The notes beneath the pieces were generated by a model, which had not been told where the DNA came from, made no database searches, and saw nothing but the letters and a program-made list of their open reading frames with translations. From Candidatus Aenigmatarchaeota archaeon (lineage in GTDB: Archaea; Aenigmatarchaeota; Aenigmatarchaeia; JACPZZ01): a DNA stretch of 64,000 nucleotides. Each line of letters begins with the position of its first letter. Position 1 is the first letter of the stretch. This document shows positions 1 to 24,932 of the stretch, one piece after another. A program made the translations under genes and the position numbers. Location: the NCBI GenBank assembly GCA_016202815.1, contig JACQNZ010000004.1:57522-121521 (forward strand). The letters run 5' to 3'.

Positions 1-1739
1 GGATTTAATGGCATGAAAAACTCTTGTATCTTTCTCACGCAATGAGGTGAAACAGCCATGCTATCAGTATCGCAAAAGGCGTAGGTCTCGTTATCTTTGG
101 ATAATATCGTTTCTGTTATAGCAAGTATCAATCTAGATGCAGAAGTTATTAGGGTCGCTATTATCGGATTGTAAGCAAATCCAATCCTTTCTATACTATT
201 GACATGAATATCGAATGATTCTAGTCCATGTATGGTTACATCTGCTTCTTCATCCGAAGGATTGGTTTCTATGAATATACCATAACTAGTAGAATTTGCT
301 ATGATTTTTAGTATCTTCTTCCGTTTCTCATCGCTTCTGTTCCTTTCCTCTATCAATACTTTGAAAAGGTCGTCTTCGTATGGATCTATCTCCATCCCTA
401 GAATATTGGCTTTGTTCATGCCTTTCTGTTTTTCTTTAGAAAGAAATTTGAAAGCTTTGATTATTGTCGGTGTCTTGCCAGTAAGAATCTTGGAAGCTAT
501 AACATCCGATAATGCATAATAAAGCGGTTTCTTGAAAGTTGCATAATTCAAGCCTATATTGTAGGCTTCCTTTTCTCCATATTTCATTCTAATCGGAAGT
601 ATGTCATTATTCGGAAGGATTTGGACTATGCGATTAAGATTCTTCCAAGTATCCCTATCTCTCAGTTTTTCTAACGTGATGTCATTTACGAATTCTCTTG
701 CTTTTTCTGTATCGTCTATAACTTCAATCTGTTCTGATGTGATCAAATCCCATAGATTCTGAAGTATGCATACACTGGGGTACATGCTTAGGAAGTCAAT
801 TAGGGTAACTTTTGTTGGTTCTTCTCTGATCTTTACTTCGCTTCTACCACCATAGTAAGCGGTCATGACATAACCGAGAATATCCTTTGAAAAGTTGGGA
901 TTCTTTTCGAAGAATGACTTTATTCCGAACTTAGAAAGGCACGCCTTACCTAATGAGGCTGGAGAAAAGACTTTAGTTAAAGGCAAATCCAAACCGTATC
1001 CGGCATACTCTCCTTTCAGTTTTTCGTAGAGTTCATACGTTATTTGGACATCGTTTAAGTTGTATTGCAGATGTTTCTCTGTTATGTTATTGTATTCTGT
1101 CTCAGTCTTTCTATGCTCTGTATTGAAACGTTCACATGCGCTTTTCAATGTCAATTTATCATTAGTAAGCGCAAAACTCAATGTTTTTAGATCCAAGAAA
1201 TTGCCGCTGAAGTTTTTCTTCTTACCATTGTATAGAATTCCTGAAGCAAATTGAATGAATGATAACGTATTGCTAATGTGCTTTATCTTGACTCTGGGTT
1301 GTTTCTTATACCTACTCAGTTGCAACGAGAATCCATTTCTCATGCCTTTTCTCGCATGACCAAATTTGATAGCTAATCTTGAGATATCAAACGGCAAATT
1401 GAATCCAATGCAAGGTGTTTCTAGATAGTAGACTTCCGGATAGAATATGTTCTCTATGAACTCTTCTTTTGTGTACAGGTTTAGGTTATGTTTCTTGCAG
1501 AATATTTGAATTATTTCCTTATCGATTTCTGATATGTTGGGGTCATAAAAGATGCCTTGAATTTCTATTGCGTCTTTATTTCGTATCTGGAAAGATCCGT
1601 AAATTAGATTCTGATAAATATCTGTTGTTGTTTCCGTATCGAATATCAAAACCCTATCGAAGTTAGGAGCATCTCTGATTATCGTTTTATGATTATCCTT
1701 TTTGTAATCCACGTAAGATCTTAGAGCAATTTCACTCAT
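1..1739 (-). CDS. polB: Family B DNA polymerase, compact protein-primed-like type (C-terminus truncated by window edge)
   Basis: Own translation of the minus strand from ATG at 1739 is open to position 1; contains Exo I FDTETTT, Exo II GFNLPFDISRL, Exo III YNLNDV, YGG, motif A LIDFLSMYPSV, motif B KILKIIANSTSYG, motif C AFCDTDSMAV in canonical order. Confidence 0.8.
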   Translation of the reverse strand, partial: MSEIALRSYVDYKKDNHKTIIRDAPNFDRVLIFDTETTTDIYQNLIYGSFQIRNKDAIEIQGIFYDPNISEIDKEIIQIFCKKHNLNLYTKEEFIENIFYPEVYYLETPCIGFNLPFDISRLAIKFGHARKGMRNGFSLQLSRYKKQPRVKIKHISNTLSFIQFASGILYNGKKKNFSGNFLDLKTLSFALTNDKLTLKSACERFNTEHRKTETEYNNITEKHLQYNLNDVQITYELYEKLKGEYAGYGLDLPLTKVFSPASLGKACLSKFGIKSFFEKNPNFSKDILGYVMTAYYGGRSEVKIREEPTKVTLIDFLSMYPSVCILQNLWDLITSEQIEVIDDTEKAREFVNDITLEKLRDRDTWKNLNRIVQILPNNDILPIRMKYGEKEAYNIGLNYATFKKPLYYALSDVIASKILTGKTPTIIKAFKFLSKEKQKGMNKANILGMEIDPYEDDLFKVLIEERNRSDEKRKKILKIIANSTSYGIFIETNPSDEEADVTIHGLESFDIHVNSIERIGFAYNPIIATLITSASRLILAITETILSKDNETYAFCDTDSMAVSPHCVRKIQEFFMPLN

Positions 1740-2091
1740 CGAAAAAACCTCGTTTGTTTAGTCTATCGCTAATGCATCTGAGAAGAGAACCGATTGAAAT
1801 GTCTTCCATTCTCGGATTGTATGCGTTTGATTTCTTTCTAATTTTCAAAGGTAATTTGTTCTGATTATCCGTAACGATTTTGTGGCAATTCTGACAAAGA
1901 CAAACTGTTACTTTGCTGTTATTTCTGCCGAATACATGATGTTTCTGTAGAACTCTGGGATCATTTTCTCTGCAGATAAAGCATGCTCCGCCAGCGTCTA
2001 ATATTTCTCTGATGTTTTCTTCTGATCTTCTGTTTTCGATCAATAACTTCTGGTATCTCTTGAATTGTTCCTTGTCCATTCTAAACACCAT
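1732..2091 (-). CDS. HNH endonuclease
   Basis: CFIC...HH...CLCQNCH pattern typical of HNH nuclease zinc-binding core; overlaps polB start by 8 nt (operonic). Confidence 0.7.
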   Translation of the reverse strand: MVFRMDKEQFKRYQKLLIENRRSEENIREILDAGGACFICRENDPRVLQKHHVFGRNNSKVTVCLCQNCHKIVTDNQNKLPLKIRKKSNAYNPRMEDISIGSLLRCISDRLNKRGFFDE

Positions 2092-2572
2092 AAATATCGT
2101 AGAATTCCTCGTCTTCTCTGGCTTCTGCTATCTCGAAGAGTGTTTTGGGACTGGTTTCGAGTTTGTGTCGCTTGCCTTTAGCGTCCTTTATGACTCTTCG
2201 CTTGAATTTCTTCAGAATTGACTTGTCGCCGGTTTCTAGGTATCTTCTAACAGCACTATGATATTGGCCAATGAGGGATGCATCCTTTGAGTTTGTAACT
2301 ATTATCTCGATTGATAGCCCCCTTTCATTGATGACCATACCCCTCTGAATTCTATCGGTCTTTCTGGACACCCATCTTCGATTTTTAGCCTTCCTTATTG
2401 CTGATCCTAGATGTATCTTTGCGGTTTCTTTATCCAGTCCATACTCCTTTGAGGACTTTGTGAGGGATTTACCGGATCGCATCTCGGTTAGGACTTTCAG
2501 AGAAAGGATGCGGAGATATCTGTCCTTCGGTTTGAGCTTAGACCATTTTAGATTACTCGGTATTTTGACCAT
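2081..2572 (-). CDS. HTH-domain protein (casposon accessory)
   Basis: Basic 163 aa protein with helix-turn-helix-like segment; overlaps HNH gene; AT-rich codon usage like neighbours. Confidence 0.4.
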   Translation of the reverse strand: MVKIPSNLKWSKLKPKDRYLRILSLKVLTEMRSGKSLTKSSKEYGLDKETAKIHLGSAIRKAKNRRWVSRKTDRIQRGMVINERGLSIEIIVTNSKDASLIGQYHSAVRRYLETGDKSILKKFKRRVIKDAKGKRHKLETSPKTLFEIAEAREDEEFYDIYGV

Positions 2573-2647
2573 AGAATAGAAATGGGCAAAATATCATACT
2601 AGGATAGTTCGTAAATTAGATTAAATTTCTAAGAACTAACTTAAAAT

Positions 2648-3502
2648 ATGAACAACAGGAACATACTTCTCACTTTGTTATATCTATGCTCAATAAAACC
2701 ATTTTGTTCTAAGGAAATATCTGATATTCTGTTCGGGCATGAGCGTAATGACCGGAGTATCAAAAAATATCTTTCAAATATGAAAAAGAACGGTCTACTA
2801 AAACTCGTTGATTATCAAAATACAAAATACCCAAAATCTGAGTTCTTTGTCATTAACCTAGAAAGATTTCCTAATTGGGAAAATGACAGAGACAAAATCT
2901 TTGTTCCAGTAGGCGATCCAAACAAGGGTATAACAAGACTGTATATAGAAACGGAAAAAATTCCATTCAAGGAATTATTTGACTTACTTGGAATTTCAAC
3001 AGCCATAGGGTCTGGAAAACTGATAGCCACCATCAAAGGACGTATACCTGACGGTAGGGTAGGGTATTTAAACAGGGCAGTTCAAGAGAATGGTATGGAA
3101 AAACCCATAAACAATCTTAAAGTCGTATTCTACATTCCGCAGGGGTTAGAGGATTCGAAAGAAGTGATAGAAATACTGGAACGTCTTAAAACCCTGAAAC
3201 CTCCCAAATCAATCGGTTTCGAGTATTCTGTTAAAAAAATGAAGAAAGAAGATGAAGAAGAATTGAAGATTAAGGTGCTTATTCCGTTAGCTGTTAATTT
3301 CGGAATAAAGATAAAACAGACTCAAAACACAAAATCCCTATATCCACAGTTGATAACATACAATGGGAACGATTTGTGGACTTTTTACCCTCAACATAGG
3401 AAGGGAGAAGGCGAGATATCAATTATCAACTTCTTGAACGCCCTAGAATCTGGAAAATTCTTGGGGTTACATATAACACAGTATGAAAGGCGATTAGGAT
3501 GA
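2648..3502 (+). CDS. Hypothetical protein, possible N-terminal winged-helix domain
   Basis: 284 aa ORF immediately upstream of and overlapping cas1 start; no recognisable catalytic motif. Confidence 0.35.
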   Translation: MNNRNILLTLLYLCSIKPFCSKEISDILFGHERNDRSIKKYLSNMKKNGLLKLVDYQNTKYPKSEFFVINLERFPNWENDRDKIFVPVGDPNKGITRLYIETEKIPFKELFDLLGISTAIGSGKLIATIKGRIPDGRVGYLNRAVQENGMEKPINNLKVVFYIPQGLEDSKEVIEILERLKTLKPPKSIGFEYSVKKMKKEDEEELKIKVLIPLAVNFGIKIKQTQNTKSLYPQLITYNGNDLWTFYPQHRKGEGEISIINFLNALESGKFLGLHITQYERRLG

Positions 3503-4689
3503 AGCACCTTGTCCTAAGTGGACATGGAATAAACATCAACGTAGATAATAGCAGACTTCATGTCAAAGACGGTAGAAACGACCCAGACACAGAGCCCAAG
3601 AAATACACCTTCAAACCAAAAATGATGGACTTCGATAATGTCATTGTCTATGGTCATAGCGGAAACATAACACTCGAAGCTATGAGATGGCTCGTTAAGC
3701 AGAATGTGCAATTGACGCTGTTGGATTGGAATGGCAACTTGCTAACAAGCGTAATGCCACCGGAATCAAAACAAATCAACTACAGAATGGTTCAATACCA
3801 AGCGTATCAAACTGAAGAAAGAACAAGACTTGCCAAACTTCTCGTAGACGCTAAAATCAAGAGTAGCAAAGTTGTCCTAAGTTGGTTGAAGAGTAAGTAT
3901 CCTCAGATAAGCGATGATATCGAATACCGATACTCGAAACTACCAAGCGCAAATTCTGTAAAATACGTAATGGACGTTGAAGGCAAAGTTGCAATTGTCT
4001 ATTGGAGAGAACTTTCAAAGATATTCAACAAGACTTTTGAATTTGAAACCAGAGGTTATGGAAAGACACCTAGACCATTAGGAGCTGTAGACCCTATCAA
4101 TGTCCTTTTGAACTATGGTTATGCCGTTTTAGAAAGCGTATGTCTCAAAGCGATAAACACCGTGGGATTAGACCCTAAGATAGGATTCTTGCATGAGGCT
4201 CAAACAGGAAAGAACCCACTCGTATACGACTTACAAGAGCCTTTCAGATGGATTATTGATGTCGCTATCCTGAATGGTCTAGAGAAACGATTGTTCAAGA
4301 AGGACGATTTCATACGGACTGAGAACTATAACCTGAGGCTAAGGCCGAGTGGTGCAAAGAAGCTGGTTAGAGAGATAGAGTTGCAGATGAACAAGACTGT
4401 AGATTACAGAGGTTACAACTACAGTTGGGCATATATCATCGGTTTGAAGGCTTTGGAATTGGCGCAGTATTTAGCAGAGAAGAGGAAAACCATCGACTTC
4501 AGTAATCCTTCGCCTGAGTTGGAGATGAAGGATAACGCTGAGTTGAGACAAAAAATACTAGATTTGTCGTCTGCTAAGGCCGAGAAATTGGGGATCGGAC
4601 GAAATGAATTGCACTATCTGAGGAAGAAAGCGAAGTCAGAGAAAGCGTTTAAAATTTATGGAAAAGTAAAAGATAGACTGAGATGTTAA
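3499..4689 (+). CDS. cas1: Cas1-family integrase (casposase)
   Basis: Translation has the Cas1 hallmark block NYGYAVLES...GLDPKIGFLHEAQTGKNPLVYDLQEPFRWIID with conserved E/H/acidic catalytic positions, and a C-terminal HTH-like tail; no CRISPR repeats anywhere in window. Confidence 0.85.
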   Translation: MKHLVLSGHGININVDNSRLHVKDGRNDPDTEPKKYTFKPKMMDFDNVIVYGHSGNITLEAMRWLVKQNVQLTLLDWNGNLLTSVMPPESKQINYRMVQYQAYQTEERTRLAKLLVDAKIKSSKVVLSWLKSKYPQISDDIEYRYSKLPSANSVKYVMDVEGKVAIVYWRELSKIFNKTFEFETRGYGKTPRPLGAVDPINVLLNYGYAVLESVCLKAINTVGLDPKIGFLHEAQTGKNPLVYDLQEPFRWIIDVAILNGLEKRLFKKDDFIRTENYNLRLRPSGAKKLVREIELQMNKTVDYRGYNYSWAYIIGLKALELAQYLAEKRKTIDFSNPSPELEMKDNAELRQKILDLSSAKAEKLGIGRNELHYLRKKAKSEKAFKIYGKVKDRLRC

Positions 4690-4690
4690 A

Positions 4691-5314
4691 ATGGGTTATA
4701 AGACGAAAAAGATCATACTGAAAATGAATGGTAAGCACCTCAAAGGTATGTATGTAGAAAGGAGCAAAAAATGTATGGTCTTAGAAATTCCCGGAACTAG
4801 TATACATTCAACTTTCCCTTTGGTTAGTAAGGACTATCATTGGACACCTGTTGTAGAATTATCAGAAGAAGAAGCAGAAATTGTTGGAAAGTGTTTAAAA
4901 CAAGATAAAAATTTTAGATATACATTGAAAGATGGAAAATTGAGAATATACCCAAAAATTAGTACAGACAACTTCGATGTTTTTGGAGTCCATTTGGGCA
5001 CATTTGCAGGATTTATGAAAGAGTGCAGTACACTCAAAAAAGATTATGAGATTATAGACTTGGACGCTCTTGGATGTAAAATTCCTAATATCTGGGTTAC
5101 AATCCGTCCTCAAACAGAAAAAAAATTATACATGCCGGATATGCCATACATACTGAAAACTTTGCGAATAGACTATCCAGATGTTATAGTAATTCTGGAG
5201 TTTATCGACGCAACTAAACATGCTGAATGCGTCAAACAAAGTGATAACAGCTCTTTTGGAAAGACTAAACTCATTGAGAAAACAGAGAAGTACTATGGAG
5301 ATGTGTCTAGATGA
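4691..5314 (+). CDS. Hypothetical protein
   Basis: 207 aa ORF 2 nt after cas1 stop, same AT-rich composition. Confidence 0.4.
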   Translation: MGYKTKKIILKMNGKHLKGMYVERSKKCMVLEIPGTSIHSTFPLVSKDYHWTPVVELSEEEAEIVGKCLKQDKNFRYTLKDGKLRIYPKISTDNFDVFGVHLGTFAGFMKECSTLKKDYEIIDLDALGCKIPNIWVTIRPQTEKKLYMPDMPYILKTLRIDYPDVIVILEFIDATKHAECVKQSDNSSFGKTKLIEKTEKYYGDVSR

Positions 5315-5877
5315 AAGGAGAACGATTAACGATAAAATTAACAATTATTGGATTACTACTCGCTATGATCTTTGGTATATCAACTTTTTATGGAGATAAA
5401 AGACTTCCCGTTGGATTCGATCTATTTTTAGCGGTCTTGTCTAAATCTATGATACCTATTTCGTCATTGTTTTTCATTTACATTGTTGGGTTGGCTGGGG
5501 ATTATAAAAACTATTCCTATAAACGTGGTTATCGTTGGTATAACGCATTTTATGATCTGGGTGTAGTATTATCGACATTTACTGTCGCATTTTCAGCGTT
5601 AATAACATTTGTACTGTACGTTTCGGGAGAATTAAATAGTATACCCTTGTTCATAGCTGGGCTTTTTGCAACAGTATTAGTAGTGTTCTATCTGATCAGA
5701 AATGATTTAAGACGTTCTATTTTAGATTTGTCAAAAATTACACTAGATCTAATTAATCATATATCTTCGGTAGTCATGAAATCGAAGAAAGTGGCTGTTC
5801 AAAGGGTTAAGGCTGACGTGAAAAAACGTTCAAGATCTAGAAAAAAATATACGCCTAAGCGGCTGAAAAAACCTTAA
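5311..5877 (+). CDS. Hypothetical membrane protein
   Basis: Multiple hydrophobic helices, basic C-terminal tail; overlaps previous ORF by 4 nt. Confidence 0.4.
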   Translation: MKGERLTIKLTIIGLLLAMIFGISTFYGDKRLPVGFDLFLAVLSKSMIPISSLFFIYIVGLAGDYKNYSYKRGYRWYNAFYDLGVVLSTFTVAFSALITFVLYVSGELNSIPLFIAGLFATVLVVFYLIRNDLRRSILDLSKITLDLINHISSVVMKSKKVAVQRVKADVKKRSRSRKKYTPKRLKKP

Positions 5878-5884
5878 ATTTGAT

Positions 5885-6472
5885 TCATGAACTCCGTTTT
5901 TTATTATTCGAAGTCAGTATTTTGAGATCTGTTCTATATTCCAAAAAGTTTAGTATAGCCATAATTATCAGCACCCAAAACATTATAGAAACGGTTGAAA
6001 AAACCATCCAAATAAAAAACCAATAAAGACCTATGAACATAGATAAAATACCGTATCTAAAAAGCCTTTTTTGCATCAAATAATAGAAACGTTTTATACC
6101 GGAAAATACATGTAACTTGTAAGAAATTAGTAAAAGAGAAATTGAAAACACCCACGCGAAAGATATGTCCACAATTGTTTTTTGATAGGGTTGTGCGCTC
6201 AAAGTCAGAATTATTGATAGCGAAGTTAGCACAAGACCACCAAATGTAAGTGAGTCGCTCGATAATTTCTCAATTTCATCTATGATGCTGTGTTGTTTAT
6301 CTTCAATCTCATCTTTTCTAAAACCAGAGTCCAAGATTTTTTTACCTATTAACTTCGAATCTGCTAAGGTTTCTATCAAGATACAAACAGCAAGACCAAC
6401 AACCGTTATTATTCCCAGATTGCTACTAACAAGACCGAATAAATAGTCTATCACTTTCCACAACTCTGGCAT
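5885..6472 (-). CDS. Hypothetical membrane protein
   Basis: 195 aa ORF with several hydrophobic segments; last gene before the tRNA. Confidence 0.4.
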   Translation of the reverse strand: MPELWKVIDYLFGLVSSNLGIITVVGLAVCILIETLADSKLIGKKILDSGFRKDEIEDKQHSIIDEIEKLSSDSLTFGGLVLTSLSIILTLSAQPYQKTIVDISFAWVFSISLLLISYKLHVFSGIKRFYYLMQKRLFRYGILSMFIGLYWFFIWMVFSTVSIMFWVLIIMAILNFLEYRTDLKILTSNNKKRSS

Positions 6473-6638
6473 TTACCATAAGAATTTTTTATTGCTTGGC
6501 AATATGGACATGTTAAATATTTTTTGACTTCTATCTCGGGTTCTCCCATAAATAATCTTTTCGTATTTTGATTGATAAGTATTACATCATCCCACTTTTG
6601 TCCAATTTCTGGGAGATATCTATATCCCATAAATTTAT

Positions 6639-6766
6639 TGGGGAAACCGTGATTTGAACACGGGTCACCGACTATCTCTAAGCTTTTCTTTCCCTCAAGG
6701 CTTTCTTTCTTGAAAAGAAAGGCTTGCCCGAAGCCGGTATCTTAGACCAGGCTGGACCATTTCCCC
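6639..6766 (-). tRNA. tRNA-Pro (anticodon CGG) candidate with about 53 nt intron after position 37
   Basis: Hand fold: acceptor GGGGAAA/TTTCCCC, D-loop AGCCTGGTCTA consensus, anticodon stem CCGGC/GTCGG with loop TTCGGG, T-arm CCGTG-TTCAAAT-CACGG, discriminator A; D-stem weak (3 bp); intron contains a 12 bp hairpin; CCA not encoded. Confidence 0.55.
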
Positions 6767-6880
6767 CTTCTTACAGGCACACACCAATATTATGCGCCAA
6801 TCGTTATAACACTCTTTCTTTTATTATGGCCATCATCTTTTAAAATAGGCTTTTATTACGGCTCCGAATTAAGTTAAATA

Positions 6881-7759
6881 ATGCGAGGTACCAGAAACAT
6901 TGTTCCGGCGCTAACAGCCTTTTTATTAGTTTTACCCATGGCGATTTCGCCTGCTCTGGCAACGGGTTACGATGTGCAGAAGGTCGATATTTCATTCGAC
7001 GTAGGCTCTGATAATTCAGTTAAGCAAACGACCAGATTCTATTTTTCAAGTCCTGTGACGGACGGTTCGATAAATTACACGCTAAACGAGCCTGTCAAAA
7101 ACATAGTGGTTTATGGTGGCAATAAACAGTTGGATAGTAAATTGGACGGTGAGGGGGACAATTATAACTTGCAGATATTTTTGGACGGACCGGTTGAGAC
7201 ATTGTTAATAACCTATTCTGCCAGCGGTATAGTGTTCCACAGCGGTTCGGTGAACCATTTATTCACACAGTTTTCCTTTGAAAAGGAGATACCGATCGTG
7301 AACTCGCAACTAAAATTGCCGACAGGCTACGAAGTCTACCAGAATTCGTACAATCCCGCCGACGGCACGATAACATCGGACGGCAAAAGTATAATCTTGG
7401 CGTGGAATGAAAGCAACGTAAGCGGTTCTATACTATTCTCGGTAAAGTACGTCAATCCGGATAAAGGTTTTATTTTTTTGGTTGCTTTTGCCTTTTTGGC
7501 CACAGGAATCGTTGCGTTTCTCTATTTCCATTTCAGGAAGAAGACAGCAGAAGCGTTTTTAAAAGGTTTCCGGGAAGACGAAAAGAAAACCATCCTGTAC
7601 CTCAGGGGCAAGCAAACCGCCTTGCAAAGGGATTTGCAGGCCGAGTTCGGCTTTTCGAGAGCCAAGTCCACAAGAATAATCTACGAGTTGGAGAAGAAGG
7701 GCCTTGTCAGGAAACAAAGGCACGGGCGGACCAACAAGTTATTTTGGCTAAATAAATGA
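6881..7759 (+). CDS. Membrane-anchored protein with C-terminal winged-helix DNA-binding domain
   Basis: Signal peptide-like N-terminus, extracytoplasmic domain, one TM helix, then basic wHTH-like tail (ILYLRGKQTALQRDLQAEFGFSRAKSTRIIYELEKKGLV). Confidence 0.5.
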   Translation: MRGTRNIVPALTAFLLVLPMAISPALATGYDVQKVDISFDVGSDNSVKQTTRFYFSSPVTDGSINYTLNEPVKNIVVYGGNKQLDSKLDGEGDNYNLQIFLDGPVETLLITYSASGIVFHSGSVNHLFTQFSFEKEIPIVNSQLKLPTGYEVYQNSYNPADGTITSDGKSIILAWNESNVSGSILFSVKYVNPDKGFIFLVAFAFLATGIVAFLYFHFRKKTAEAFLKGFREDEKKTILYLRGKQTALQRDLQAEFGFSRAKSTRIIYELEKKGLVRKQRHGRTNKLFWLNK

Positions 7760-7814
7760 CTGTTTCACGACTGTTTCAACACCCAGATTAGGATCTGAAA
7801 CGGACAATAAACCG

Positions 7815-8639
7815 ATGTCAAGAAAAGCGCAGGAGACGCTTTTTTATGACGGAGGTGGGAGCATGAAGTCGTGGATGGCAGGAATGCTGGTGGCGCTGGT
7901 AATGACAGCGCCATTAGCAGCGGGGCAGGGCATAAATACGTCTGCAAGTACGGACGTAAGGGCCGTGAACACATTGAGCCTCGGCCTGAGGCAGGTAGGC
8001 GAGTCGTTTAGCGACTTTGTCTTTCGTATAAAAGCAATTTTAACATTTGACGAAAGGGCAAGGCTGGATCTGCTAAAGGCCAGAAACGAGGAAATGAAAT
8101 CCAGGCAACACGCCTGGTTGAAAATAAAAAGCGATATGCTTGCACAGGTAAAGGCAGGCAACTTGACAGCCGAAGAAAAGCAGCAGGTAATGAAACAGGT
8201 AAAAGCCGAGCACGAGGCAATAATCAGGGAGCATTTCGGGCTGACAGCTGATATGAGAAAAATCCAGCTGAAGGCAAAAGCGCATGGAAGAACCGAGTTG
8301 GAGAGATCAGCCGAAGAGGAAGCGGATGAGGCTGAGGAATCGGATGTCTCCCTTGGGCTGAACATAGGTGCGGAGCTTAGTATCGGAGTGAGTGAAAACG
8401 TGACGGCGGACCAGGCTAAAACTCTAGTAGGAGAGAAGCTTGGTTTTGAAACAGCCGACGTTAGGACGGAGACAAGAAACGGCACTACATTTTACGTGGT
8501 GTCAGGAACAGAGACGAGCGCAGCCGGAAACTACACGCTGAAAAAAGGTTTTGAGGCGTGGGTCAGAGCCGACACGGGAATGATACATTCCTTGGGTATG
8601 GACGCCCGGTTGGACAGCGCAGTAGGAGTCAGCGTATAG
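7815..8639 (+). CDS. Secreted coiled-coil protein, hypothetical
   Basis: Signal peptide-like MKSWMAGMLVALVMTAPLAAG then charged helical repeats; true start may be the internal Met. Confidence 0.45.
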   Translation: MSRKAQETLFYDGGGSMKSWMAGMLVALVMTAPLAAGQGINTSASTDVRAVNTLSLGLRQVGESFSDFVFRIKAILTFDERARLDLLKARNEEMKSRQHAWLKIKSDMLAQVKAGNLTAEEKQQVMKQVKAEHEAIIREHFGLTADMRKIQLKAKAHGRTELERSAEEEADEAEESDVSLGLNIGAELSIGVSENVTADQAKTLVGEKLGFETADVRTETRNGTTFYVVSGTETSAAGNYTLKKGFEAWVRADTGMIHSLGMDARLDSAVGVSV

Positions 8640-8766
8640 AAAACTGCAATAGCACCCCAATAAGGTGGGCCGGCGGGACCAGAGCCAGCAGCCATAGGTT
8701 AAATTTCCGCCGGCCCATTAATTTATCAAATTAAAGGATAGGTTTGCTAATAAATTATCAAAGCAG

Positions 8767-9669
8767 ATGTGGATTGAGATGAGAAAAAATTTAATTATGC
8801 TTGTGCAGATGGTTATGCTTGCAGTATTAACCAGTCCCGTTTCCGCGCAGATCGCATCGCAATCCTTTGTTCACGTAGACTTCGCGGACGACAATTTGAC
8901 TGACGCGAAATTGGAAGTCGCGGAAACCACATTTTCGGAACCCGGGTTGTTGCCAAACCATCCGCTGTACCCTTTGAAGAGGGGTTTTGAGAATATCCGG
9001 CTTCTGTTAACGTTTGGCAACGAGAAAAAGGCCGAACTCCACCAGGAGTTTGCAAAAACCAGACTTGCAGAAGTCAAAAAACTGGTCGAAGAAAATAATA
9101 CCTTTGATGTCAAGAGGTCGTTGGACGAATTTGACAGGGAGTTGAACGATTCTGAAAACCTTTACGTTAAAATTAGGAAAAACAATTCAGTTACGACAAA
9201 AGCCAGGGAAGATTTCATGATCCAAAGTAACCTGGTTCTTGGTTCTGTATTAAAGAAAGTTCCCGAGCAATCCAAACCTTCGATAGAAAAAGTGTTAAAC
9301 AGATCCGGTGAAAGGAAATTGAACATAAAATTCAGGCCGGCCAACAGCGAGAACACAGAAAACCGCACGGAGAACGAAGAGACTGTCAAGGAAAAGACCG
9401 GGACGGAAAAGAATAAGCCCGAGGCTGTGAAAAAGAAAACCGAGAGATCGGAAGTATGCATACAGGTCATTACACCTGCGATAAGTCCTAGCGGGGAGTG
9501 CAAGGAATTCCCGACGCCTTGTGATGTTCCGAGAGGGTGGAAAAAAGTAAGCGCATGTGAACCGGATACAACGCAGAAAAAACCGGAAAAGTCGGGCGAG
9601 TCCACGATGAAAAGTCCCTTGGATGTTCCTTCTAAGGTTCCGGGTGTAAAGAAAATTATCGGCCTTTAA
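8767..9669 (+). CDS. Secreted protein, hypothetical
   Basis: N-terminal signal peptide, charged middle, Cys pairs near C-terminus. Confidence 0.45.
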   Translation: MWIEMRKNLIMLVQMVMLAVLTSPVSAQIASQSFVHVDFADDNLTDAKLEVAETTFSEPGLLPNHPLYPLKRGFENIRLLLTFGNEKKAELHQEFAKTRLAEVKKLVEENNTFDVKRSLDEFDRELNDSENLYVKIRKNNSVTTKAREDFMIQSNLVLGSVLKKVPEQSKPSIEKVLNRSGERKLNIKFRPANSENTENRTENEETVKEKTGTEKNKPEAVKKKTERSEVCIQVITPAISPSGECKEFPTPCDVPRGWKKVSACEPDTTQKKPEKSGESTMKSPLDVPSKVPGVKKIIGL

Positions 9670-9735
9670 GCAGATTTTCCCAAAATTTCAACCATCAATG
9701 TTAAATCCCCGCCTGCGCAATCAAATCTGGTAAAA

Positions 9736-11259
9736 ATGAGGAAAATACCGGCTATAATGTCGACCCAGCACCCGGATTGCGCCAGCCTTCCCGATTTCGT
9801 GAAAGGCGACATATTCAGCAACGACGACGAGGTTGCTGAAGCGGCTAACGCCTTTAAGATCGGCTGCGACGAACAGCTTTGGGACTGGGAAGGCAAGGAA
9901 GTGGACACGCATGTTGTGCGAAAGCTGCTTTCTGCGGACGAACGGTTTTTCCGCGAAAACGCGCTTGGCAAGGACGTTTTTATAACTTACCGCATACCGA
10001 ACCCCGAGGTCGAAGGCGCCGAGCGCAAGCTTGTCGTGGAAGCGCTAGAATCAATACCGAGAAACTTCGATGTTGCGAAAAAGTTCTACGGAAACTGCGA
10101 GCCGCCGATAATAGAAGTCGCGCTGCCGATGACGACGTCACACGAACAGATGCTGCGCGTGTCTTCGTACTACGAGAACGTTGTCGTCAATAAAGAAAAT
10201 ATGCCGGTTTACGGCGGCATAAAGCTGAAGGAGTGGATAGGCGAATTCAACCCAAAAACGGTCGGCGTCATACCGCTGATAGAGGACATGCAAAGCATTT
10301 TAAACACCAAAGGAATATTGGGCGGTTTTTTGGCGAACAAGAACGCCGAGTACACACGGCCGTGGATCGCGAGATCCGACACGGCGCTGAACTACGGGCT
10401 GGTCCCGTCGACATTGCTTGTGAAATTTTTCCTGTCATGCGTCGCGGCTTCGGAAGCGGAAACGGGCGTTCCCCATTATCCGATACTTGCCACAGGCGCG
10501 ATGCCTTTCCGCGGAGGGCTAAACCCGGACAATGTGGAAAATTTCCTGGAAGAATATGGAGCTTTCAAAACGTACGCGTTGCAGTCGTCGGCGAAATACG
10601 ATTTTGAGCGCGAAAAGGTGGCGAAGATGATAGATTCGCTAAAAAAGCATTCGCAGCACAAGGCCAAGGAAATGGGCGAGGACGAAAAGCGGGGGCTGCT
10701 AGGCATTGTGGAGGCGTTCTCGGGCGGATACAGGAAAAGGGTGGAAGGCCTGGCGCATGTTGTCAACGTTGTATCAGGCAAGGTGCCGAACAGGCGAAGC
10801 AGGCATTTGCATATAGGGTTGTTCGGCTACAGCCGTAATTTCTCCGATTCTGTAAAGCTGCCGCGTGCGATAAAATTTGCAGCTTCGCTTTATTCGATCG
10901 GGCTGCCGCCTGAAATAATCGGGATAAGCTCGTTGAATGCTGCCGAAAGCAGCGGAAATAAAAACGGGCTTGACAGGCTTTATGTTAACCTAAAAGGCGA
11001 TCTTGCTACAGTGTCAGGTTTAGTTTCCAAATCAGCGATTAAAATAGCATGCGAGAAGGGCTTGATAGGCCAGGAGACGCTGGACATGGTCAATGAAGAC
11101 ATAGAAGCTGTCGAAAGTTTTGGGATCGAAATCGGGGCGAAGACGCTGGAGGAAGAGCAGCACCAGCTTCTTGCCAAGCAGATTGTTTCTAACATAGGCG
11201 ACGGCAAGGTTACCGACAGGATAACCGAGGCTGCGAAAATCAGGAAATCGCTGGGTTAG
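9736..11259 (+). CDS. ppcA: Phosphoenolpyruvate carboxylase, archaeal type
   Basis: About 500 aa with N-terminal IPAIMSTQHPD signature characteristic of archaeal-type PEPC. Confidence 0.8.
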   Translation: MRKIPAIMSTQHPDCASLPDFVKGDIFSNDDEVAEAANAFKIGCDEQLWDWEGKEVDTHVVRKLLSADERFFRENALGKDVFITYRIPNPEVEGAERKLVVEALESIPRNFDVAKKFYGNCEPPIIEVALPMTTSHEQMLRVSSYYENVVVNKENMPVYGGIKLKEWIGEFNPKTVGVIPLIEDMQSILNTKGILGGFLANKNAEYTRPWIARSDTALNYGLVPSTLLVKFFLSCVAASEAETGVPHYPILATGAMPFRGGLNPDNVENFLEEYGAFKTYALQSSAKYDFEREKVAKMIDSLKKHSQHKAKEMGEDEKRGLLGIVEAFSGGYRKRVEGLAHVVNVVSGKVPNRRSRHLHIGLFGYSRNFSDSVKLPRAIKFAASLYSIGLPPEIIGISSLNAAESSGNKNGLDRLYVNLKGDLATVSGLVSKSAIKIACEKGLIGQETLDMVNEDIEAVESFGIEIGAKTLEEEQHQLLAKQIVSNIGDGKVTDRITEAAKIRKSLG

Positions 11260-11285
11260 TTAAATAAGAATATCCAAATAATGGC

Positions 11286-11729
11286 ATGACACCGGAAAGG
11301 GAAATCAAAATAAAGCCGATAGGATTTGTGAAAAACGGCATCAAAAAACCCAGGTTCGGAAATTTTGCGGACGAAATTTCAGAGATAGTCGTGGACAAGA
11401 AATTCGCTGACGGGCTGGATAACATCGGTGATTATTCCCATGTGATCATAGTGTACTGGATGGACAAGGTAAAAGGTTATGTCACAAAACACAAACCGCA
11501 GGGCACCGGGCCTTTAGTCGGGATATTCGCGTGCCGGTGCGCGCAGAGGCCGAACCCTGTCGCGATAACGACTGTGAAACTTCTGGGACGCAATGGAAAC
11601 AAAATAAAAGTCAAGGGCCTTGACGTGTTAAACGGGACGCCTGTGATTGATATAAAGCCGTACTGGCCGCAATACGATAAAGTCAGGAATGGAAAAGTGC
11701 CTTCGTGGGTGGGCAGGCTGAAATTTTAG
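11286..11729 (+). CDS. TrmO/TsaA-family SAM-dependent methyltransferase
   Basis: IGFVKNG...NPVAITTVKLL...GLDVLNGTPVIDIKPYWP matches the TsaA/YaeB-like fold pattern. Confidence 0.65.
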   Translation: MTPEREIKIKPIGFVKNGIKKPRFGNFADEISEIVVDKKFADGLDNIGDYSHVIIVYWMDKVKGYVTKHKPQGTGPLVGIFACRCAQRPNPVAITTVKLLGRNGNKIKVKGLDVLNGTPVIDIKPYWPQYDKVRNGKVPSWVGRLKF

Positions 11730-11780
11730 GGGTTCGGCACATTTTTATACAAAACGCGACAAAGATAATTAAGGAATGTT

Positions 11781-12191
11781 ATGCGGGACCTTGCGCTTTT
11801 GCTTCACATAATGCTTGGGATCTCTTTGGTCGTATTGCCGCTGGTGATACTTTCCAAGCTCGGCAAAAAATCCTCGCTGGCGAGGACTCTTTCCCTTTTG
11901 AGCGCGGGCGCAAGCTGGACCCTCCTTTTTCCTGCCGGCATTTTATACACTATGTTTTATCCGGCTACTAAGACGCTCATCAAGTCAGGAGCATGGCCGT
12001 GGGCACATTCGGTTGTGATGGAAACGAAGGAACATTGGGGCCTGCTGTTGCCTGTGATAACAACTGTGGCGGCGTGGCTCGTCCTTGCGAACAAGGAAAA
12101 AGAAAGCAGGCGATGGTGGGTTCTCGCCGCTGTTTTGGCAGCGTTGCTGGGTGTCATGGGAAGGGTTGTAAAAATGGGGGCTTTGGCATGA
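11781..12191 (+). CDS. Hypothetical membrane protein
   Basis: 136 aa, four hydrophobic segments. Confidence 0.4.
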   Translation: MRDLALLLHIMLGISLVVLPLVILSKLGKKSSLARTLSLLSAGASWTLLFPAGILYTMFYPATKTLIKSGAWPWAHSVVMETKEHWGLLLPVITTVAAWLVLANKEKESRRWWVLAAVLAALLGVMGRVVKMGALA

Positions 12192-12481
12192 CCAAGAAGT
12201 TAAACGTTTACGCAGGGGCGCACGCCGCATCGTGGACGCTGGCAGCTCTTGTTGTTGGCGCAGAGCTTTTGGCGCCGTTAAAGGCCGTGTTAAGCGCAGT
12301 TTTCGGCCACCATTGGATCGGAAAGGCCGTGATCACAACGTTCATGTTTATCGCATTCAGCTACGCGTTCAAGGGAAAGAGACTGTCCAAAAAAACCTCC
12401 GATAACGACGTTGCGTGGAACAGCGCTGTTGGAAGCCTAACCGCGATATTCCTTTTTTATCTGGCAGAGTTTTTACTGTGA
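12188..12481 (+). CDS. Small hypothetical membrane protein
   Basis: ATG at 12188 overlaps upstream stop; hydrophobic 97 aa product; the longer listed ORF start at 11993 overlaps the upstream gene in another frame and is unlikely. Confidence 0.35.
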   Translation: MTKKLNVYAGAHAASWTLAALVVGAELLAPLKAVLSAVFGHHWIGKAVITTFMFIAFSYAFKGKRLSKKTSDNDVAWNSAVGSLTAIFLFYLAEFLL

Positions 12482-12931
12482 TTGTCTATGATACACAAGA
12501 AAAAACACAACGATGCGCCTGTGGGGCTTGTCCTAGTCTTGTTTTTTGCCGCTGCCATAATTTACCTTTTCGCCTCTTCTGACAGTGCGAAGGGCCAAAT
12601 TCCATCGTATGTCACAGGCGATGTGCGCGCGGTTTACGAATGGGCTAGAACACAGGAGGGGAACGATTTGCTGGAACAAATGCCATGTTACTGCGGCTGC
12701 AAGTATGAAGGCCACAAGCATGCCAGGCATTGCTTTTGGAGGGACGACGGGAGTTTTGACAGGCACGGCACAACCTGTTCGACATGCCTGGACATTGCGA
12801 AAAAAACCATGCAAATGAGCAAGCAGGGAAAGAGCGTTTGCGAGATACGAAACGAGATAGACAGGTTCTATGCTCCCAACGTTAACCTGGGGACTAACAC
12901 GCCGATGCCCAGGGGCTGCGCGGCGTCTTGA
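12482..12931 (+). CDS. Membrane-anchored Cys-rich protein with PCYCGC motif
   Basis: N-terminal TM helix then MPCYCGCKYEGHKHARHC and CSTC motifs. Confidence 0.45.
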   Translation: MSMIHKKKHNDAPVGLVLVLFFAAAIIYLFASSDSAKGQIPSYVTGDVRAVYEWARTQEGNDLLEQMPCYCGCKYEGHKHARHCFWRDDGSFDRHGTTCSTCLDIAKKTMQMSKQGKSVCEIRNEIDRFYAPNVNLGTNTPMPRGCAAS

Positions 12932-12956
12932 CCTGTCGGCATTTGAAGGTTTTTGC

Positions 12957-13664
12957 ATGTCAGAACAGCTTGCGTTGGGGATAGTGGTTGCGGCCGCGTT
13001 AGCTGACAGCATAAACCCGTGCGTATTCGGCGTGCTGATATTTTTGCTTGCGTATATGACCCGCGTTTTCAAAAACAAAAACAGGATGCTGCTGGCAGGA
13101 ATTATTTATATCATCGCGGTTTACATCACGTATTTCCTTCTGGGAGTGGGCATATTCACGCTCGCGTACACAGCGGGTTTTGCAAAGCAGTTTTATTGGT
13201 TCGCCGCAGTCGTTGCCATAGCGGCAGGCCTTTTTGAGATCAAGGATTTCTTCTGGTACGGCAAGGGTTTCTCGCTCCAGATAATACCCGGAGGGGCGGA
13301 GAGGATCAAGAGATACTCTAAGTTAATGGAAAGGATGGAAACGAAGCATCCGTTGTTGAGTTTGCTAGTGGCGGCTTTCCTGGGAGTTTTCGTGGTTTTC
13401 GTGGAGCTTCCGTGCACGGGTGCGCCTTACCTTGCGATATTGGGCATGCTGTCCAGCGGCGATTACGCCACAGGTGTTCCCCTACTCCTGATTTACAACC
13501 TTGTTTTCATACTGCCGCTGATTGTCATAGTCGGCCTTGTGTATGCGGGTTACACGTTCAAAACGCTCGAAAACTGGAGAAAAAAGCACAGGGCCCTGAT
13601 GAGGCTGCTTATCGGCCTGTTTTTGATGTCACTGGGCGCGTACATGATATGGGCGGTCATTTAA
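12957..13664 (+). CDS. DsbD/CcdA-like thiol-disulfide transfer membrane protein
   Basis: Polytopic membrane protein with paired conserved Cys in TM segments (SINPCVF and ELPCTGAPYL); start taken at ATG 12957 within the longer listed ORF. Confidence 0.55.
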   Translation: MSEQLALGIVVAAALADSINPCVFGVLIFLLAYMTRVFKNKNRMLLAGIIYIIAVYITYFLLGVGIFTLAYTAGFAKQFYWFAAVVAIAAGLFEIKDFFWYGKGFSLQIIPGGAERIKRYSKLMERMETKHPLLSLLVAAFLGVFVVFVELPCTGAPYLAILGMLSSGDYATGVPLLLIYNLVFILPLIVIVGLVYAGYTFKTLENWRKKHRALMRLLIGLFLMSLGAYMIWAVI

Positions 13665-18791: not shown

Positions 18792-19487
18792 TTGGAAATA
18801 ATAAAGAAGGACGATCAGATGAGTGAAGAACAAATACGTTTATCGGCATCGTCTCTTGGGTTGATGCTCGACTGTGAACGCTGCTTCTGGCTGAAAATTG
18901 TTAAAAAAGTTGATAGACCTAACGGACCTTTTCCTAGTTTGCCAGGCGGCATCGACGCTGTTATGAAGAAACACTTTGATGCCTATCGCAGCAAAGGGCT
19001 ACCGCCTGAACTGGTTGGGAAAGTTGACGGCAAGCTGTTTGATGACATTGAACTGATTGACAAGTGGAGGAATTGGAGGACAGGACTATCGGTTGTAGAC
19101 AATAATATAAAATTAGTTGCGGCGTTTGATGACCTGCTTGTTAACGATGGGAAGTTTATTCCATTTGACGTCAAAACAAAGGGCTGGAAACCGAAGGTAG
19201 ACGCCAAGGATCATTATCAGCACCAAATGGATATCTATGCATACGTGTTGTTGAGAAACGGATACGAGATCTCAGATCACGCTTACCTAGCTTTCTATTA
19301 CCCAGATATTGCCAATGGTGACGGTTCGATACAGTTCATGACGGATGTTGTCAAGGTTGATATTAAACTAGACCATGCGGTCCAGATGCTGAAAGATGCT
19401 GCTAAGGTTATCGAAGGCAGAGAGCCGAAAGCGGCTGATAAATGCGAGTTTTGCGGGTGGAATACAGCTCTAAATAAATGTCAATAA
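18792..19487 (+). CDS. Cas4-like PD-(D/E)xK nuclease with Fe-S cluster cysteines
   Basis: N-terminal CERCFW, nuclease motifs AAFDDLLV / IPFDVKTKG / QHQMDIYAY, C-terminal CEFCGW...C; arrangement matches the Cas4/RecB-nuclease fold. Confidence 0.6.
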   Translation: MEIIKKDDQMSEEQIRLSASSLGLMLDCERCFWLKIVKKVDRPNGPFPSLPGGIDAVMKKHFDAYRSKGLPPELVGKVDGKLFDDIELIDKWRNWRTGLSVVDNNIKLVAAFDDLLVNDGKFIPFDVKTKGWKPKVDAKDHYQHQMDIYAYVLLRNGYEISDHAYLAFYYPDIANGDGSIQFMTDVVKVDIKLDHAVQMLKDAAKVIEGREPKAADKCEFCGWNTALNKCQ

Positions 19488-19864
19488 ACAGTGTTATTAT
19501 CATGGACGATCAGACTACGATTAATGAATTAAAGGGGCTCGTAAGAAAATTTTGTGAAGAGAGGGATTGGGATAAATATCACAATCCTAAAGACCTTGCT
19601 ATTGGAATCATAACAGAATCTTCTGAACTCTTAGAACATTTTAGATTCAAAACAAATGAAGAAACAGAAGAAATGTTTGAGAACGTGAAAAATAGAAAGG
19701 AGATATCAGAGGAGCTATCTGATATATTATATTTTGTTCTTAGGCTAGCGCAAAAATACAGCATAGATTTGTCAGAAGAGTTAAAAGCTAAGATAGAAAA
19801 AAACGGTAAAAAATACCCTATCGAAAAATCGAAAGGATTGAATAAAAAGTATACGGAGCTATAA
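19478..19864 (+). CDS. MazG-like nucleotide pyrophosphohydrolase
   Basis: All-alpha NTP-PPase pattern IITESSELLEHF...EELSDILYFVLRLAQKYSIDL; overlaps upstream gene by 10 nt. Confidence 0.65.
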   Translation: MSINSVIIMDDQTTINELKGLVRKFCEERDWDKYHNPKDLAIGIITESSELLEHFRFKTNEETEEMFENVKNRKEISEELSDILYFVLRLAQKYSIDLSEELKAKIEKNGKKYPIEKSKGLNKKYTEL

Positions 19865-19867
19865 AAT

Positions 19868-21736: not shown

Positions 21737-21791
21737 GAATATTATCGGAGTATACGGGGGTTATAATTCAGAGTATTGATTGAATAATCAA

Positions 21792-22163
21792 TCATCTTTT
21801 TTTATATCCAAAATATTTTTCATAGGTTCTATGGGAAATTGCATCAAGGACTATTGCCAGTATTTCGATCTCGTTTGTGTGTAAAGTGTATATCAACCGC
21901 CAGCCATCAAAAAGATCAACTTTCCAAAGATTGTTCACATCCGCCATTGTGATGTATCTTTTTGGTATGTATTTTTTGGGTATCTGAATCCCTGAAATGG
22001 GATCAATTTTGAGTTGGTCAATGGCCACCTTGATAGAGCTGAACAATTTTTGTTTTTCAGAATCGACTATGCCCCGTTTTGTTTCATTTTTGACCTCTTC
22101 GTGCAATTCATGTAATTCAGCAGCAACTTCTTTTCTGTTTCTCACCCTGATTCGTTTAATCAC
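21792..22163 (-). CDS. RelE/ParE-family toxin (putative)
   Basis: C-terminal LWKVDLFDGWRLIYTLHTNEIEILAIVLDAISHRTYEKY fits the RelE/ParE pattern. Confidence 0.5.
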   Translation of the reverse strand: MIKRIRVRNRKEVAAELHELHEEVKNETKRGIVDSEKQKLFSSIKVAIDQLKIDPISGIQIPKKYIPKRYITMADVNNLWKVDLFDGWRLIYTLHTNEIEILAIVLDAISHRTYEKYFGYKKR

Positions 22164-22435
22164 GTTTCAGTGCCTTCTCTGATTATTTTGTCAAGTTTAG
22201 GACTAGGGTTGTATGTCCAAATAACACCCTTATGACTATCAATGATCATACCATGATCCTCAAAGTAACTGAGAATTACATTCAATGTCTGATGCATGAT
22301 TTGAACCGGTAACTTTCGTTTGATTTCTTCTCTGCTTATAGCAACGTCAGAGTCCTTTAGAACTTTCTCTACCATACGGACAGTTCTTAGAGTCGGTGAG
22401 TGCAAAATCTCTTGAGTTTGAAGCTTGTTCTTCAT
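22160..22435 (-). CDS. Putative antitoxin
   Basis: 91 aa ORF immediately upstream of and overlapping the toxin by 4 nt; classic TA arrangement. Confidence 0.4.
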   Translation of the reverse strand: MKNKLQTQEILHSPTLRTVRMVEKVLKDSDVAISREEIKRKLPVQIMHQTLNVILSYFEDHGMIIDSHKGVIWTYNPSPKLDKIIREGTET

Positions 22436-22582
22436 AGTTATATCATTATACAGATATCTATATATAGTTATACATAGTAGTAATAATCGTTAAATGTGAC
22501 CTAAGTAGACGTTTTGGGTTTTATTTTCTGTGATTAAAGTCGCCTTGTTGTGATTTTAGTCGTTGTTTTCGGTTACTTTAAG

Positions 22583-22607
22583 CACAAGGCTCCCCCCCCC
22601 CGCGGCG
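22583..22607. repeat. Direct repeat copy 1: ACAAGGCT + C(10) + GCG
   Basis: Same 8 bp core plus poly-C and GCG recurs at 26676-26693. Confidence 0.6.
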
Positions 22608-23631: not shown

Positions 23632-23714
23632 CTGTTTAGAGGGTTATATTAAAGCGGTGGTAGTTGTCTGAATTATCAACTATCTTTTAAATCAGTCAAC
23701 TTCGTTTATTTTTA

Positions 23715-24914: not shown

Positions 24915-24932
24915 ATTTTCGTGCCCTTAAAA

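Follow-up and report, generated by a model that had tools for sequence, protein, structure and literature searches.

A probable family 2 casposon at the 3' end of a tRNA-Pro gene in a DPANN archaeal genome

We analysed a stretch of 64,000 nucleotides from a Candidatus Aenigmatarchaeota archaeon (assembly GCA_016202815.1, contig JACQNZ010000004.1, positions 57,522 to 121,521), which we call the window. We conclude that a family 2 casposon of at least 7.7 kb very probably sits at the 3' end of a tRNA-Pro(CGG) gene of an archaeal chromosome, and that window positions 1-6628 are its right-hand ~6.6 kb. The original prediction, made from the sequence alone, had proposed a casposon-like element here, and this proposal is borne out by the Cas1 homolog, the family B DNA polymerase (PolB), the HNH endonuclease, the gene order, the right-end motif and the tRNA junction. 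The gene block at 1-6630 was recognized from the open reading frame (ORF) listing and its translations; the element part ends at 6628 and reaches at least 1,064 bp beyond the left window edge. G+C content is 32-41% in the element block and 45-53% in the host DNA to its right, with a sharp step at the tRNA-Pro gene, as expected from the AT-rich block that had been noticed next to a tRNA 3' end. Genes of the archaeal core set are found in the other 57 kb, among them those for ATP-dependent DNA ligase, RFC, ThyX, Kae1 and Sua5, and also S6e, eIF2-gamma, FtsZ and topoisomerase IA. NCBI labels the host that carries the identical Cas1 and PolB as a Candidatus Aenigmarchaeota archaeon metagenome-assembled genome (MAG), a DPANN lineage, with the two proteins encoded on a contig of 205,939 bp, and the small-genome archaeal host proposed at the outset forms part of the reading that we support. 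Elements of this kind are already known, and the host range is the sole fresh aspect here. Casposons are the presumed ancestors of the adaptation machinery of CRISPR systems, and the few dozen described so far come mostly from methanogens, Thermoplasmata relatives and Thaumarchaeota.

The core genes, the terminus and the target are as follows, with proteins given by their length in amino acids (aa).

1-1739, minus strand: family B DNA polymerase of the PolB_CDTDS type, N-terminal 579 of 859 residues in the window; from motifs, homologues and an AlphaFold (AF2) model
1732-2091, minus strand: HNH endonuclease, 119 aa; from PHROG HNH families, a McrA profile match and conserved position
2081-2572, minus strand: p163, a conserved 163-aa casposon protein and core family gene with a putative helix-turn-helix (HTH); from 47 homologues
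3499-4689, plus strand: casposase, a Cas1-family integrase of 396 aa with a C-terminal HTH; from PF01867, a match to 6OPM and the catalytic triad
6609-6628: right terminus, the outer part of the terminal inverted repeat (TIR); the minus strand read inward is GGGATATAGATATCTCCCAG
6629-6643: predicted tRNA-proximal copy of the target-site duplication (TSD), 15 bp, which reads CCCCAATAAATTTAT on the tRNA strand and extends 5 bp into the 3' end of tRNA-Pro
6639-6766, minus strand: tRNA-Pro(CGG), the target gene, intact with a 53-nt intron; from ARAGORN with introns allowed

Casposase, polymerase and conserved gene order

The product of the gene at 3499-4689 matched the Pfam family Cas_Cas1 (PF01867) with an E-value of 8e-63. 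Its best match in the PDB was 6OPM, which covered residues 1-394 of 396, including the HTH (E 1.5e-124, 419 bits), whereas the best-matching CRISPR Cas1 structure, that of A. fulgidus (4N06), reached only 112 bits. 6OPM is the family 2 casposase of Methanosarcina mazei, which has an active site of E162, H232 and E247 and a C-terminal HTH that is essential for integration (PMC6977970). The matching residues E161, H232 and E247 are all present in the protein studied here, in agreement with the intact catalytic signature noted in the original prediction. In NCBIfam, the protein passed the generic cas1 model only and fell far under the cut-off of every CRISPR subtype. An HTH-like resemblance was found between Cas1 residues 352-386 and the C-terminus of the polymerase (E 2e-7, 77% positives), and similar HTH domains on Cas1 and PolB are a stated hallmark of family 2 (PMC9939771; the feature definition is also in PMC6977970). 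The closest casposases, at 56-60% identity, are found in other Aenigmatarchaeota MAGs.

The polymerase gene runs 840 bp past the left window edge, and the complete protein is 859 aa long. A homology search retrieved an identical full-length protein, annotated as 'hypothetical protein HY516_02045 [Candidatus Aenigmarchaeota archaeon]' (859 aa), and a Logan contig with the full PolB matched window positions 1-1785 with zero mismatches. The enzyme had been taken for a compact one with motif C near residue 560, an appearance that arises because the window edge cuts the gene at residue 579. Of the motifs named in the original prediction, Exo I reads FDTETT, motif A DFLSMYPS, motif B KIIANSTSYG and motif C FCDTDSMAV, followed by KRY, and the motif C residues C556-D557-T558-D559-S560 were invariant in 24 homologues. 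Searches with the single sequence against Pfam, NCBIfam and the PDB were empty or sub-threshold, so that the enzyme had to be identified by profile and structure; a profile of 24 polymerase sequences matched archaeal PolB and Pol alpha. The AF2 model (pLDDT 86, pTM 0.83) confirmed a family B fold, and with it Foldseek returned 160 matches at E <= 0.001, of which all 50 listed were family B polymerases. The nominal first was phi29, followed within 1-3 orders of magnitude by Pol delta, poxvirus, Pol alpha, archaeal PolB and Pol II enzymes.

By sequence, the polymerase shares 44% identity across 867 aa with the PolB from Methanosarcina sp. 2.H.T.1A.6, a published casposon host, and 40-44% across ~860-900 aa with the PolBs of Methanosarcinales casposons. 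Thaumarchaeal PolBs also matched, including one from Nitrosotalea sinensis at 47% identity, because family 2 casposons such as NitNCS1-C1 occur in that lineage. Kazlauskas et al. (2020) named the PolB_CDTDS cluster for its motif C and linked it to the main group as well as to the protein-primed one; the A. boonei member of the cluster is encoded by a casposon (PMC7544198). Because motif C is invariantly CDTDS and the intermediate position of PolB_CDTDS has already been published, we conclude that the polymerase is an ordinary family 2 enzyme, neither compact nor a protein-primed PolB (pPolB). The protein-primed likeness suggested at first had a real basis, since the group lies between PolB and pPolB and phi29 was the nominal top match, but it is an ordinary family 2 property and not a novelty.

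Next to the polymerase gene, the 119-aa protein matched PHROG HNH families with E-values of 2e-7 to 1e-4, and a profile of 25 homologues matched the McrA HNH (E 9e-4). Its C-x2-C...HH...C-x2-CH residues are invariant or nearly so among the homologues, 42 of which sit between PolB and p163 in related loci, and the HNH nuclease of the original prediction is thereby upheld. The 47 homologues of p163 are 36-61% identical to it, and every one of them lies beside HNH and PolB.

A scan with a casposase alignment, using one genome per species, yielded 79 related loci, and the order PolB(-)-HNH(-)-p163(-)-variable-Cas1(+) recurs in tens of them. It was seen in Methanolobus, Methanosarcina (including sp. 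2.H.T.1A.6), Methanococcoides and Methanoculleus, in Thermoplasmata, in Nitrosopumilus and its relatives, and in Aenigmat-, Nano-, Woese- and Micrarchaeota and Diapherotrites. The closest relatives of the PolB, the Cas1 and a zinc-ribbon ORF described below lie in four independently binned Aenigmatarchaeota MAGs, in two cases on contigs of more than 90 kb. The Cas1 cluster has a single member and no Joint Genome Institute (JGI) source, which indicates that the same element is not in that collection; no TIR scan was made of JGI metagenomes.

The tRNA-Pro target and the element's termini

The tRNA-Pro candidate of the original prediction is a real gene, on the complement of 6639-6766 and with a 53-nt intron. 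A minus-strand reading of 6640-6766 first hinted at a split tRNA, and intron-aware ARAGORN then identified tRNA-Pro(CGG) as the sole tRNA gene in the 64 kb, with its 3' end facing the AT-rich block. Default ARAGORN and Rfam at gathering thresholds reported no RNA gene in the window, because the intron hid the gene from them. In archaea of this sort, tRNA detection has to allow for introns when integration sites are analysed.

At the right end, the tRNA 3' end is followed by 10 AT-only nucleotides and then by GGGATATAGATATCTC. On the tRNA strand the junction reads ...ACGGTTTCCCCA, then ATAAATTTAT, then GGGATATAGATATCTCCCAG, with a spacing of 10 nt, or in short tRNA...CCCCA, ATAAATTTAT, GGGATATAGATATC. 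This terminus is the only oriented GGG[AT]TATA[GT] on its strand in the 64 kb, and the 12-mer GGGATATAGATA is likewise unique within the 64 kb. We estimate the chance of finding the 8-mer motif in the right orientation at one of three permitted offsets as ~1e-4 to 4e-4. Of the first 16 nt of the terminus, 15 are identical to the TIR of the Methanosarcina sp. DH2 casposon, and 11-14 agree with eight other casposon TIRs.

The casposon of A. boonei has a TSD of 15 bp, CCCCACTACGAGGAG, which takes in the final 5 bp of a tRNA-Pro gene with an intron (PMC5137440). Applying this rule here, we infer CCCCAATAAATTTAT as the predicted TSD, which places the end of the element at 6628. By the same analogy, an inverted GGGATATAGATATC... 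copy would be expected directly after (A)TAAATTTATTGGGG on the plus strand at the left junction, and the second copy of the duplication, predicted as (C)CCCAATAAATTTAT, would lie left of the window. A TIR spanning 6473-6638 had been proposed, but this span is too wide, because 6629-6638 belongs to the predicted TSD and most of the rest is a small zinc-ribbon ORF; the recognizable terminus is the last ~16-20 nt up to 6628. We rejected a second GGGTTATA at 4693 as an internal terminus, as it falls in the start-codon region of the neighbouring cargo gene p207 and is without a TSD-like flank. Copies of the motif at 23641 and 24797, beside a DDE transposase gene, were also rejected since neither extends into a real inverted repeat.

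Complete relatives have the same terminal arrangement. A script that searched for direct repeats bordering the gene cluster and for inverted repeats immediately inward of these found 15 loci with duplications of 14-15 bp and TIRs agreeing at 22-30 of 30 positions, and all of these TIRs start with GGGATATA, GGGGATATAG, GGGGTTATA or a close variant. In 11 complete relatives, the tRNA strand reads tRNA 3' end, 8-10 mostly AT-rich nucleotides and GGG terminus. The relatives' TSDs of 14-15 bp begin with the last 4-5 nt of the tRNA and continue into AT-rich sequence, and their elements measure 8.5-14 kb. Related DPANN elements have TIRs that match at 28-30 of 30 positions. One of them, a complete 10.4-kb casposon, lies at 3138-13511 of a closed 1.05-Mb Diapherotrites genome (CP064981.1, locus L011), with TIRs identical at 30/30 positions and a 14-bp TSD at tRNA-Arg(TCG). 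The completeness of this element and its identical TIRs in a closed genome suggest recent activity in a genome of ~1 Mb. A 9.65-kb Aenigmatarchaeota contig (L007) ends exactly on the terminus GGGATATATATAAG read inward (9628-9651), which indicates that assembly broke at the boundary between element and target; generic inverted-repeat finding had given only AT-rich noise in this contig, and the terminus was found later by motif search. Across at least seven archaeal lineages, the terminal motif GGG[A/T]TATA... and the spacing of 8-10 nt from tRNA to terminus hold, and together they form a simple signature with which to delimit elements and avoid false CRISPR calls in small genomes.

Several relatives were peculiar. 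In three loci scored as having no tRNA at the TSD (L020:3324-3367, L022:3541-3587 and L025:8682-8726), a sequence resembling a T-psi-C arm and acceptor, GGTTCGAATCC.../GGGGTTCAAATCCCC..., stands right before the duplication, and these elements too occupy the 3' ends of tRNAs or tRNA-like sequences missed by ARAGORN. Of a casposase, another Aenigmatarchaeota MAG (L062:10001-12505) keeps just the C-terminal half (residues 199-394, 59% identical); a tRNA-Pro(CGG) gene whose intron is 73 nt long lies ~1.8 kb away. Neither PolB nor a terminal motif was detected there, and the DNA of this locus was too diverged to be aligned with the junction in the window. This locus looks like a decayed casposon at the same target. 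Another casposase, also 59% identical, has no PolB within 10 kb (L088:4246-12936, also L089); a tyrosine integrase (PF00589) is encoded nearby, as are a response regulator and an EMARD_N protein, and this casposase may be a Cas1-solo or a non-autonomous derivative.

By analogy with the A. boonei and M. mazei enzymes, integration would begin with a casposase tetramer holding the 3'-OH ends of both TIRs and recognizing the T-psi-C-arm region of the tRNA gene with the adjacent 14-15 bp. The TIR ends would then be joined to staggered positions on the two strands, and gap filling would duplicate 15 bp (predicted as CCCCAATAAATTTAT), so that the tRNA gene would be regenerated intact. The element is presumably copied by its own polymerase, and excision or the processing of ends may be the part played by the HNH nuclease.

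The left end and alternative explanations

To extend the element leftward, we looked for exact copies of four of its proteins (Cas1, HNH, p163 and the complete PolB), which gave only Logan contigs of 1-3 kb. The best contig added 1,064 genuine bases, and 19 more were Nextera adapter. The added sequence holds the rest of PolB and, to its left, a further minus-strand zinc-ribbon ORF, homologues of which were found only inside two Aenigmatarchaeota casposons (L007, which holds more than 2.4 kb past its zinc-ribbon gene, and L025). This ORF was absent from the protein database, and the leftward walk ended there. The Logan contigs over the element are short (0.9-2.9 kb), and at least three of them (L001, L002 and L006) end in the Nextera adapter CTGTCTCTTATACACATCT. 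Given adapter sequence at such ends, we do not regard them as biological boundaries.

Some results weigh against the assignment to a family 2 casposon. A search of the 1,064-bp extension that tolerated as many as 4 mismatches did not find the predicted left junction (TSD plus TIR), and neither the left TIR nor the second TSD copy was seen in the sequence available. Across 6272-6738, no independently assembled contig was retrieved. The definition of family 2 includes two HTH proteins, and the candidates for them have weak statistical support: p163 matched HTH_28, GerE or HTH_29 in Pfam weakly and in 4 of 24 members, and p284, a protein encoded just upstream of the casposase, gave one sub-threshold match to the MCM_C winged HTH (E 0.036). 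The HTH label in the original prediction is thus not confirmed. Finally, the neighbour-joining tree in which the casposase clusters with Methanosarcinales family 2 casposases is rough, unrooted in style and built without support values or CRISPR outgroups. In this tree the casposase groups with Aenigmatarchaeota and groundwater sequences, and the sister of this clade consists of other DPANN lineages and Methanomicrobia family 2 enzymes.

The missing left TIR and TSD would be explained if the element were a family 2 casposon that is immobilized or decaying, with its left end lost or degraded, and now persists as a fixed genomic island. Decay is common in the family: elements without TIR or TSD are known from the literature in M. 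burtonii, and the half-casposase beside tRNA-Pro(CGG) and the casposase without a nearby PolB described above point the same way. Against this, all core ORFs are full length with intact catalytic motifs, the right terminus matches the family at 15/16 positions, and the TIRs of related DPANN elements agree at 28-30 of 30, and we consider decay unlikely, if worth keeping in mind. The gap in independent contigs bears instead on an assembly or binning artefact, in which a casposon and the 3' part of a tRNA-Pro gene from another archaeon in the sample became attached to this contig, with the conserved 5' half of the tRNA as the bridge. Host-side Logan contigs from three independent assemblies stop at 6738, 6739 and 6782, in or just before the tRNA gene, element-side contigs stop at or before 6272, G+C changes sharply at the tRNA, and no synteny links the host flank to other Aenigmatarchaeota casposon loci. 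Yet the two parts form one coherent tRNA, whose exons pair correctly across a non-conserved 53-nt intron, and the varying break points, with many contigs ending in adapters, look like the ends of low-coverage k-mer assembly. Complete flanked casposons also exist in the closed Diapherotrites genome. Because the tRNA is coherent and the nearest relatives of Cas1, PolB and the zinc-ribbon protein are in four independent Aenigmatarchaeota MAGs, a chimeric join at the tRNA is improbable.

The chance that this Cas1 belongs to a conventional CRISPR adaptation module, with its array and cas2 outside the window, is close to nil. The database name of the protein is 'CRISPR-associated endonuclease Cas1', and it passes generic Cas1 models. 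Such a module would place cas2 and an array next to cas1, but both sides of the gene are occupied by PolB, HNH and other casposon genes, and the 1,064 bp on the left consist of the rest of PolB and the zinc-ribbon ORF. There was no CRISPR-like tandem repeat array anywhere in the 64-kb window and no Cas Pfam family among its 64 host ORFs; the 1,064 bp added on the left likewise contained neither array nor cas gene. Both the gap between the 6OPM score and that of the best CRISPR Cas1 and the C-terminal HTH, which is absent from CRISPR Cas1, also speak against a role in adaptation. Two statements of the original prediction, that Cas1 here is an integrase and that the window lacks CRISPR repeats and other cas genes, therefore stand. 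Its further suggestion of an unusual or new casposon family, with a compact polymerase of the protein-primed type, does not, and we give it a very slim probability: protein-primed likeness is a property of ordinary family 2 polymerases, and polymerase, gene order, HTH, terminal motif and junction geometry are all those of the known family 2. Taken together, we conclude that a family 2 casposon at tRNA-Pro(CGG) is the best account of this locus.

Cargo genes, host range and known casposons

Besides its core genes, the element encodes the following proteins.

2648-3502, plus strand: p284, a 284-aa element-specific protein with a possible N-terminal winged HTH; overlaps the casposase start
4691-5314, plus strand: p207, a 207-aa cargo protein, from the ORF listing
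5311-5877, plus strand: 188-aa cargo protein, hydrophobic and a probable membrane protein; hydrophobic segments by inspection
5885-6472, minus strand: 195-aa cargo protein, hydrophobic and a probable membrane protein, from the ORF listing
6451-6630, minus strand: 59-aa CxxC...CxxC zinc-ribbon ORF, its long form doubtful; from the ORF listing and sequence reading

The five ORFs of 284, 207, 188, 195 and 59 aa had no above-threshold match in Pfam, NCBIfam, PHROGs or PADLOC, nor in ~90 related loci, and we conclude that they are lineage-specific cargo. No homologue of p284 was present among the ORFs of these loci, and ORFs of 211-290 aa take its position in L007 and L086. p207 was confirmed at 100% identity on an independent Logan contig (L095), and the 188-aa protein is also found on Logan contigs L095 and L096. 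The 59-aa ORF gave a sub-threshold match to Zn_ribbon_9 and is not recorded as a called gene. Its ATG (6628-6630) is made up of the last two bases of the predicted TSD and the first base of the terminal repeat. Because the start straddles this boundary, the long form is doubtful; it may be an ORF-calling artefact or a gene start made by integration, and an alternative start at an internal Met would give a 32-aa peptide.

A second AT-rich island lies at 19200-26600 of the window, with 30-40% G+C compared with 45-52% in its flanks.

19478-19864: MazG-like gene
19868-21736: Schlafen-group-3/DUF2075 helicase, matching the PADLOC candidates PDC-S41, Nhi and AbiO
21792-22435, minus strand: two small ORFs, RelE-like by eye
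23715-24689: DDE_Tnp_1 transposase
24933-26120: 395-aa ORF

We regard this second island as a probable defence or mobile island that has no relation to the casposon.

Mechanistically, the locus offers nothing new; it documents the reach of family 2 into DPANN, where database annotation hides casposons under the names 'CRISPR-associated Cas1' and 'hypothetical protein'. We propose, tentatively and with doubts that outweigh our confidence, that DPANN archaea, for all their minimal genomes, are true hosts of family 2 casposons with apparent recent activity, hosts not described until now, and that the element belongs to an Aenigmatarchaeota-associated lineage. Complete relatives with TIRs matching at 28-30 of 30 positions are present in Diapherotrites, Micrarchaeota and Aenigmatarchaeota. 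If the proposal is true, the 15/16 likeness of the terminus to a Methanosarcina TIR would come from casposons passing between DPANN cells and the euryarchaea living with them. Full-text searches found six open-access papers in which casposons and DPANN are both mentioned; the ones consulted describe no DPANN casposon, and DPANN is not listed among the hosts in recent casposon papers, although one group refers to a survey of its own that is unpublished.

Among known elements, AciBoo-C1 of Aciduliprofundum boonei, a family 2 casposon reportedly treated by Hickman and Dyda in 2015 and by Beguin et al. in 2016 and 2019, likewise sits at the 3' end of a tRNA-Pro gene that has an intron. The first bases of its 15-bp TSD are CCCCA and coincide with the end of the tRNA, a 5-bp overlap like the one predicted here. 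By gene content, the two elements share a casposase with HTH, a CDTDS-type PolB, HNH and putative HTH proteins. AciBoo-C1 differs in its methyltransferase cargo, in its thermophilic euryarchaeal host (here DPANN) and in that its second TSD copy has been seen. The family 2 elements of Methanosarcina, Methanolobus and Methanococcoides were reportedly described by Krupovic et al. (2014 and 2016), and the structure 6OPM by Hickman et al. (2020). They have the same casposase triad and HTH, the same gene order, PolBs at 40-44% identity and TSDs of 14-15 bp, but they occupy tRNA-Leu, tRNA-Gly or intergenic CGCA sites instead of tRNA-Pro; their casposases are only ~46-50% identical to the one studied here, and their cargo is unrelated. 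NitNCS1-C1 of Ca. Nitrosotalea okcheonensis, reportedly described by Krupovic et al. in 2019, is a family 2 element outside Euryarchaeota that is also inserted in tRNA-Pro. It has a fragmented PolB and a WYL protein, whereas the PolB studied here is intact.

Two other archaeal families are less similar. Family 1 casposons of Nitrosopumilus, which carry pPolB, share the combination of Cas1 and a family B polymerase in a compact self-synthesizing transposon. Their PolB is protein-primed, their casposase is without HTH, and their usual target is ef-2 (PMC6563490, PMC8464041); the element described here has the HTH, a PolB orthologous to those of family 2 and a tRNA target. Family 4 (MetMaz1FA1A3-C1-like) is also archaeal, and its Cas1 clade is sister to that of family 2. 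Its own features are another core arrangement, 225-bp TIRs, 35-bp TSDs, TPR and REX1-like genes and the lack of an HTH-HEAT gene. The present element has the family 2 gene order and terminal motif and gave no TPR or REX1 Pfam matches. With its casposase, a C-terminal HTH shared with PolB, a CDTDS PolB, an HNH nuclease and insertion at a tRNA 3' end, the element shows these features of the family 2 definition.

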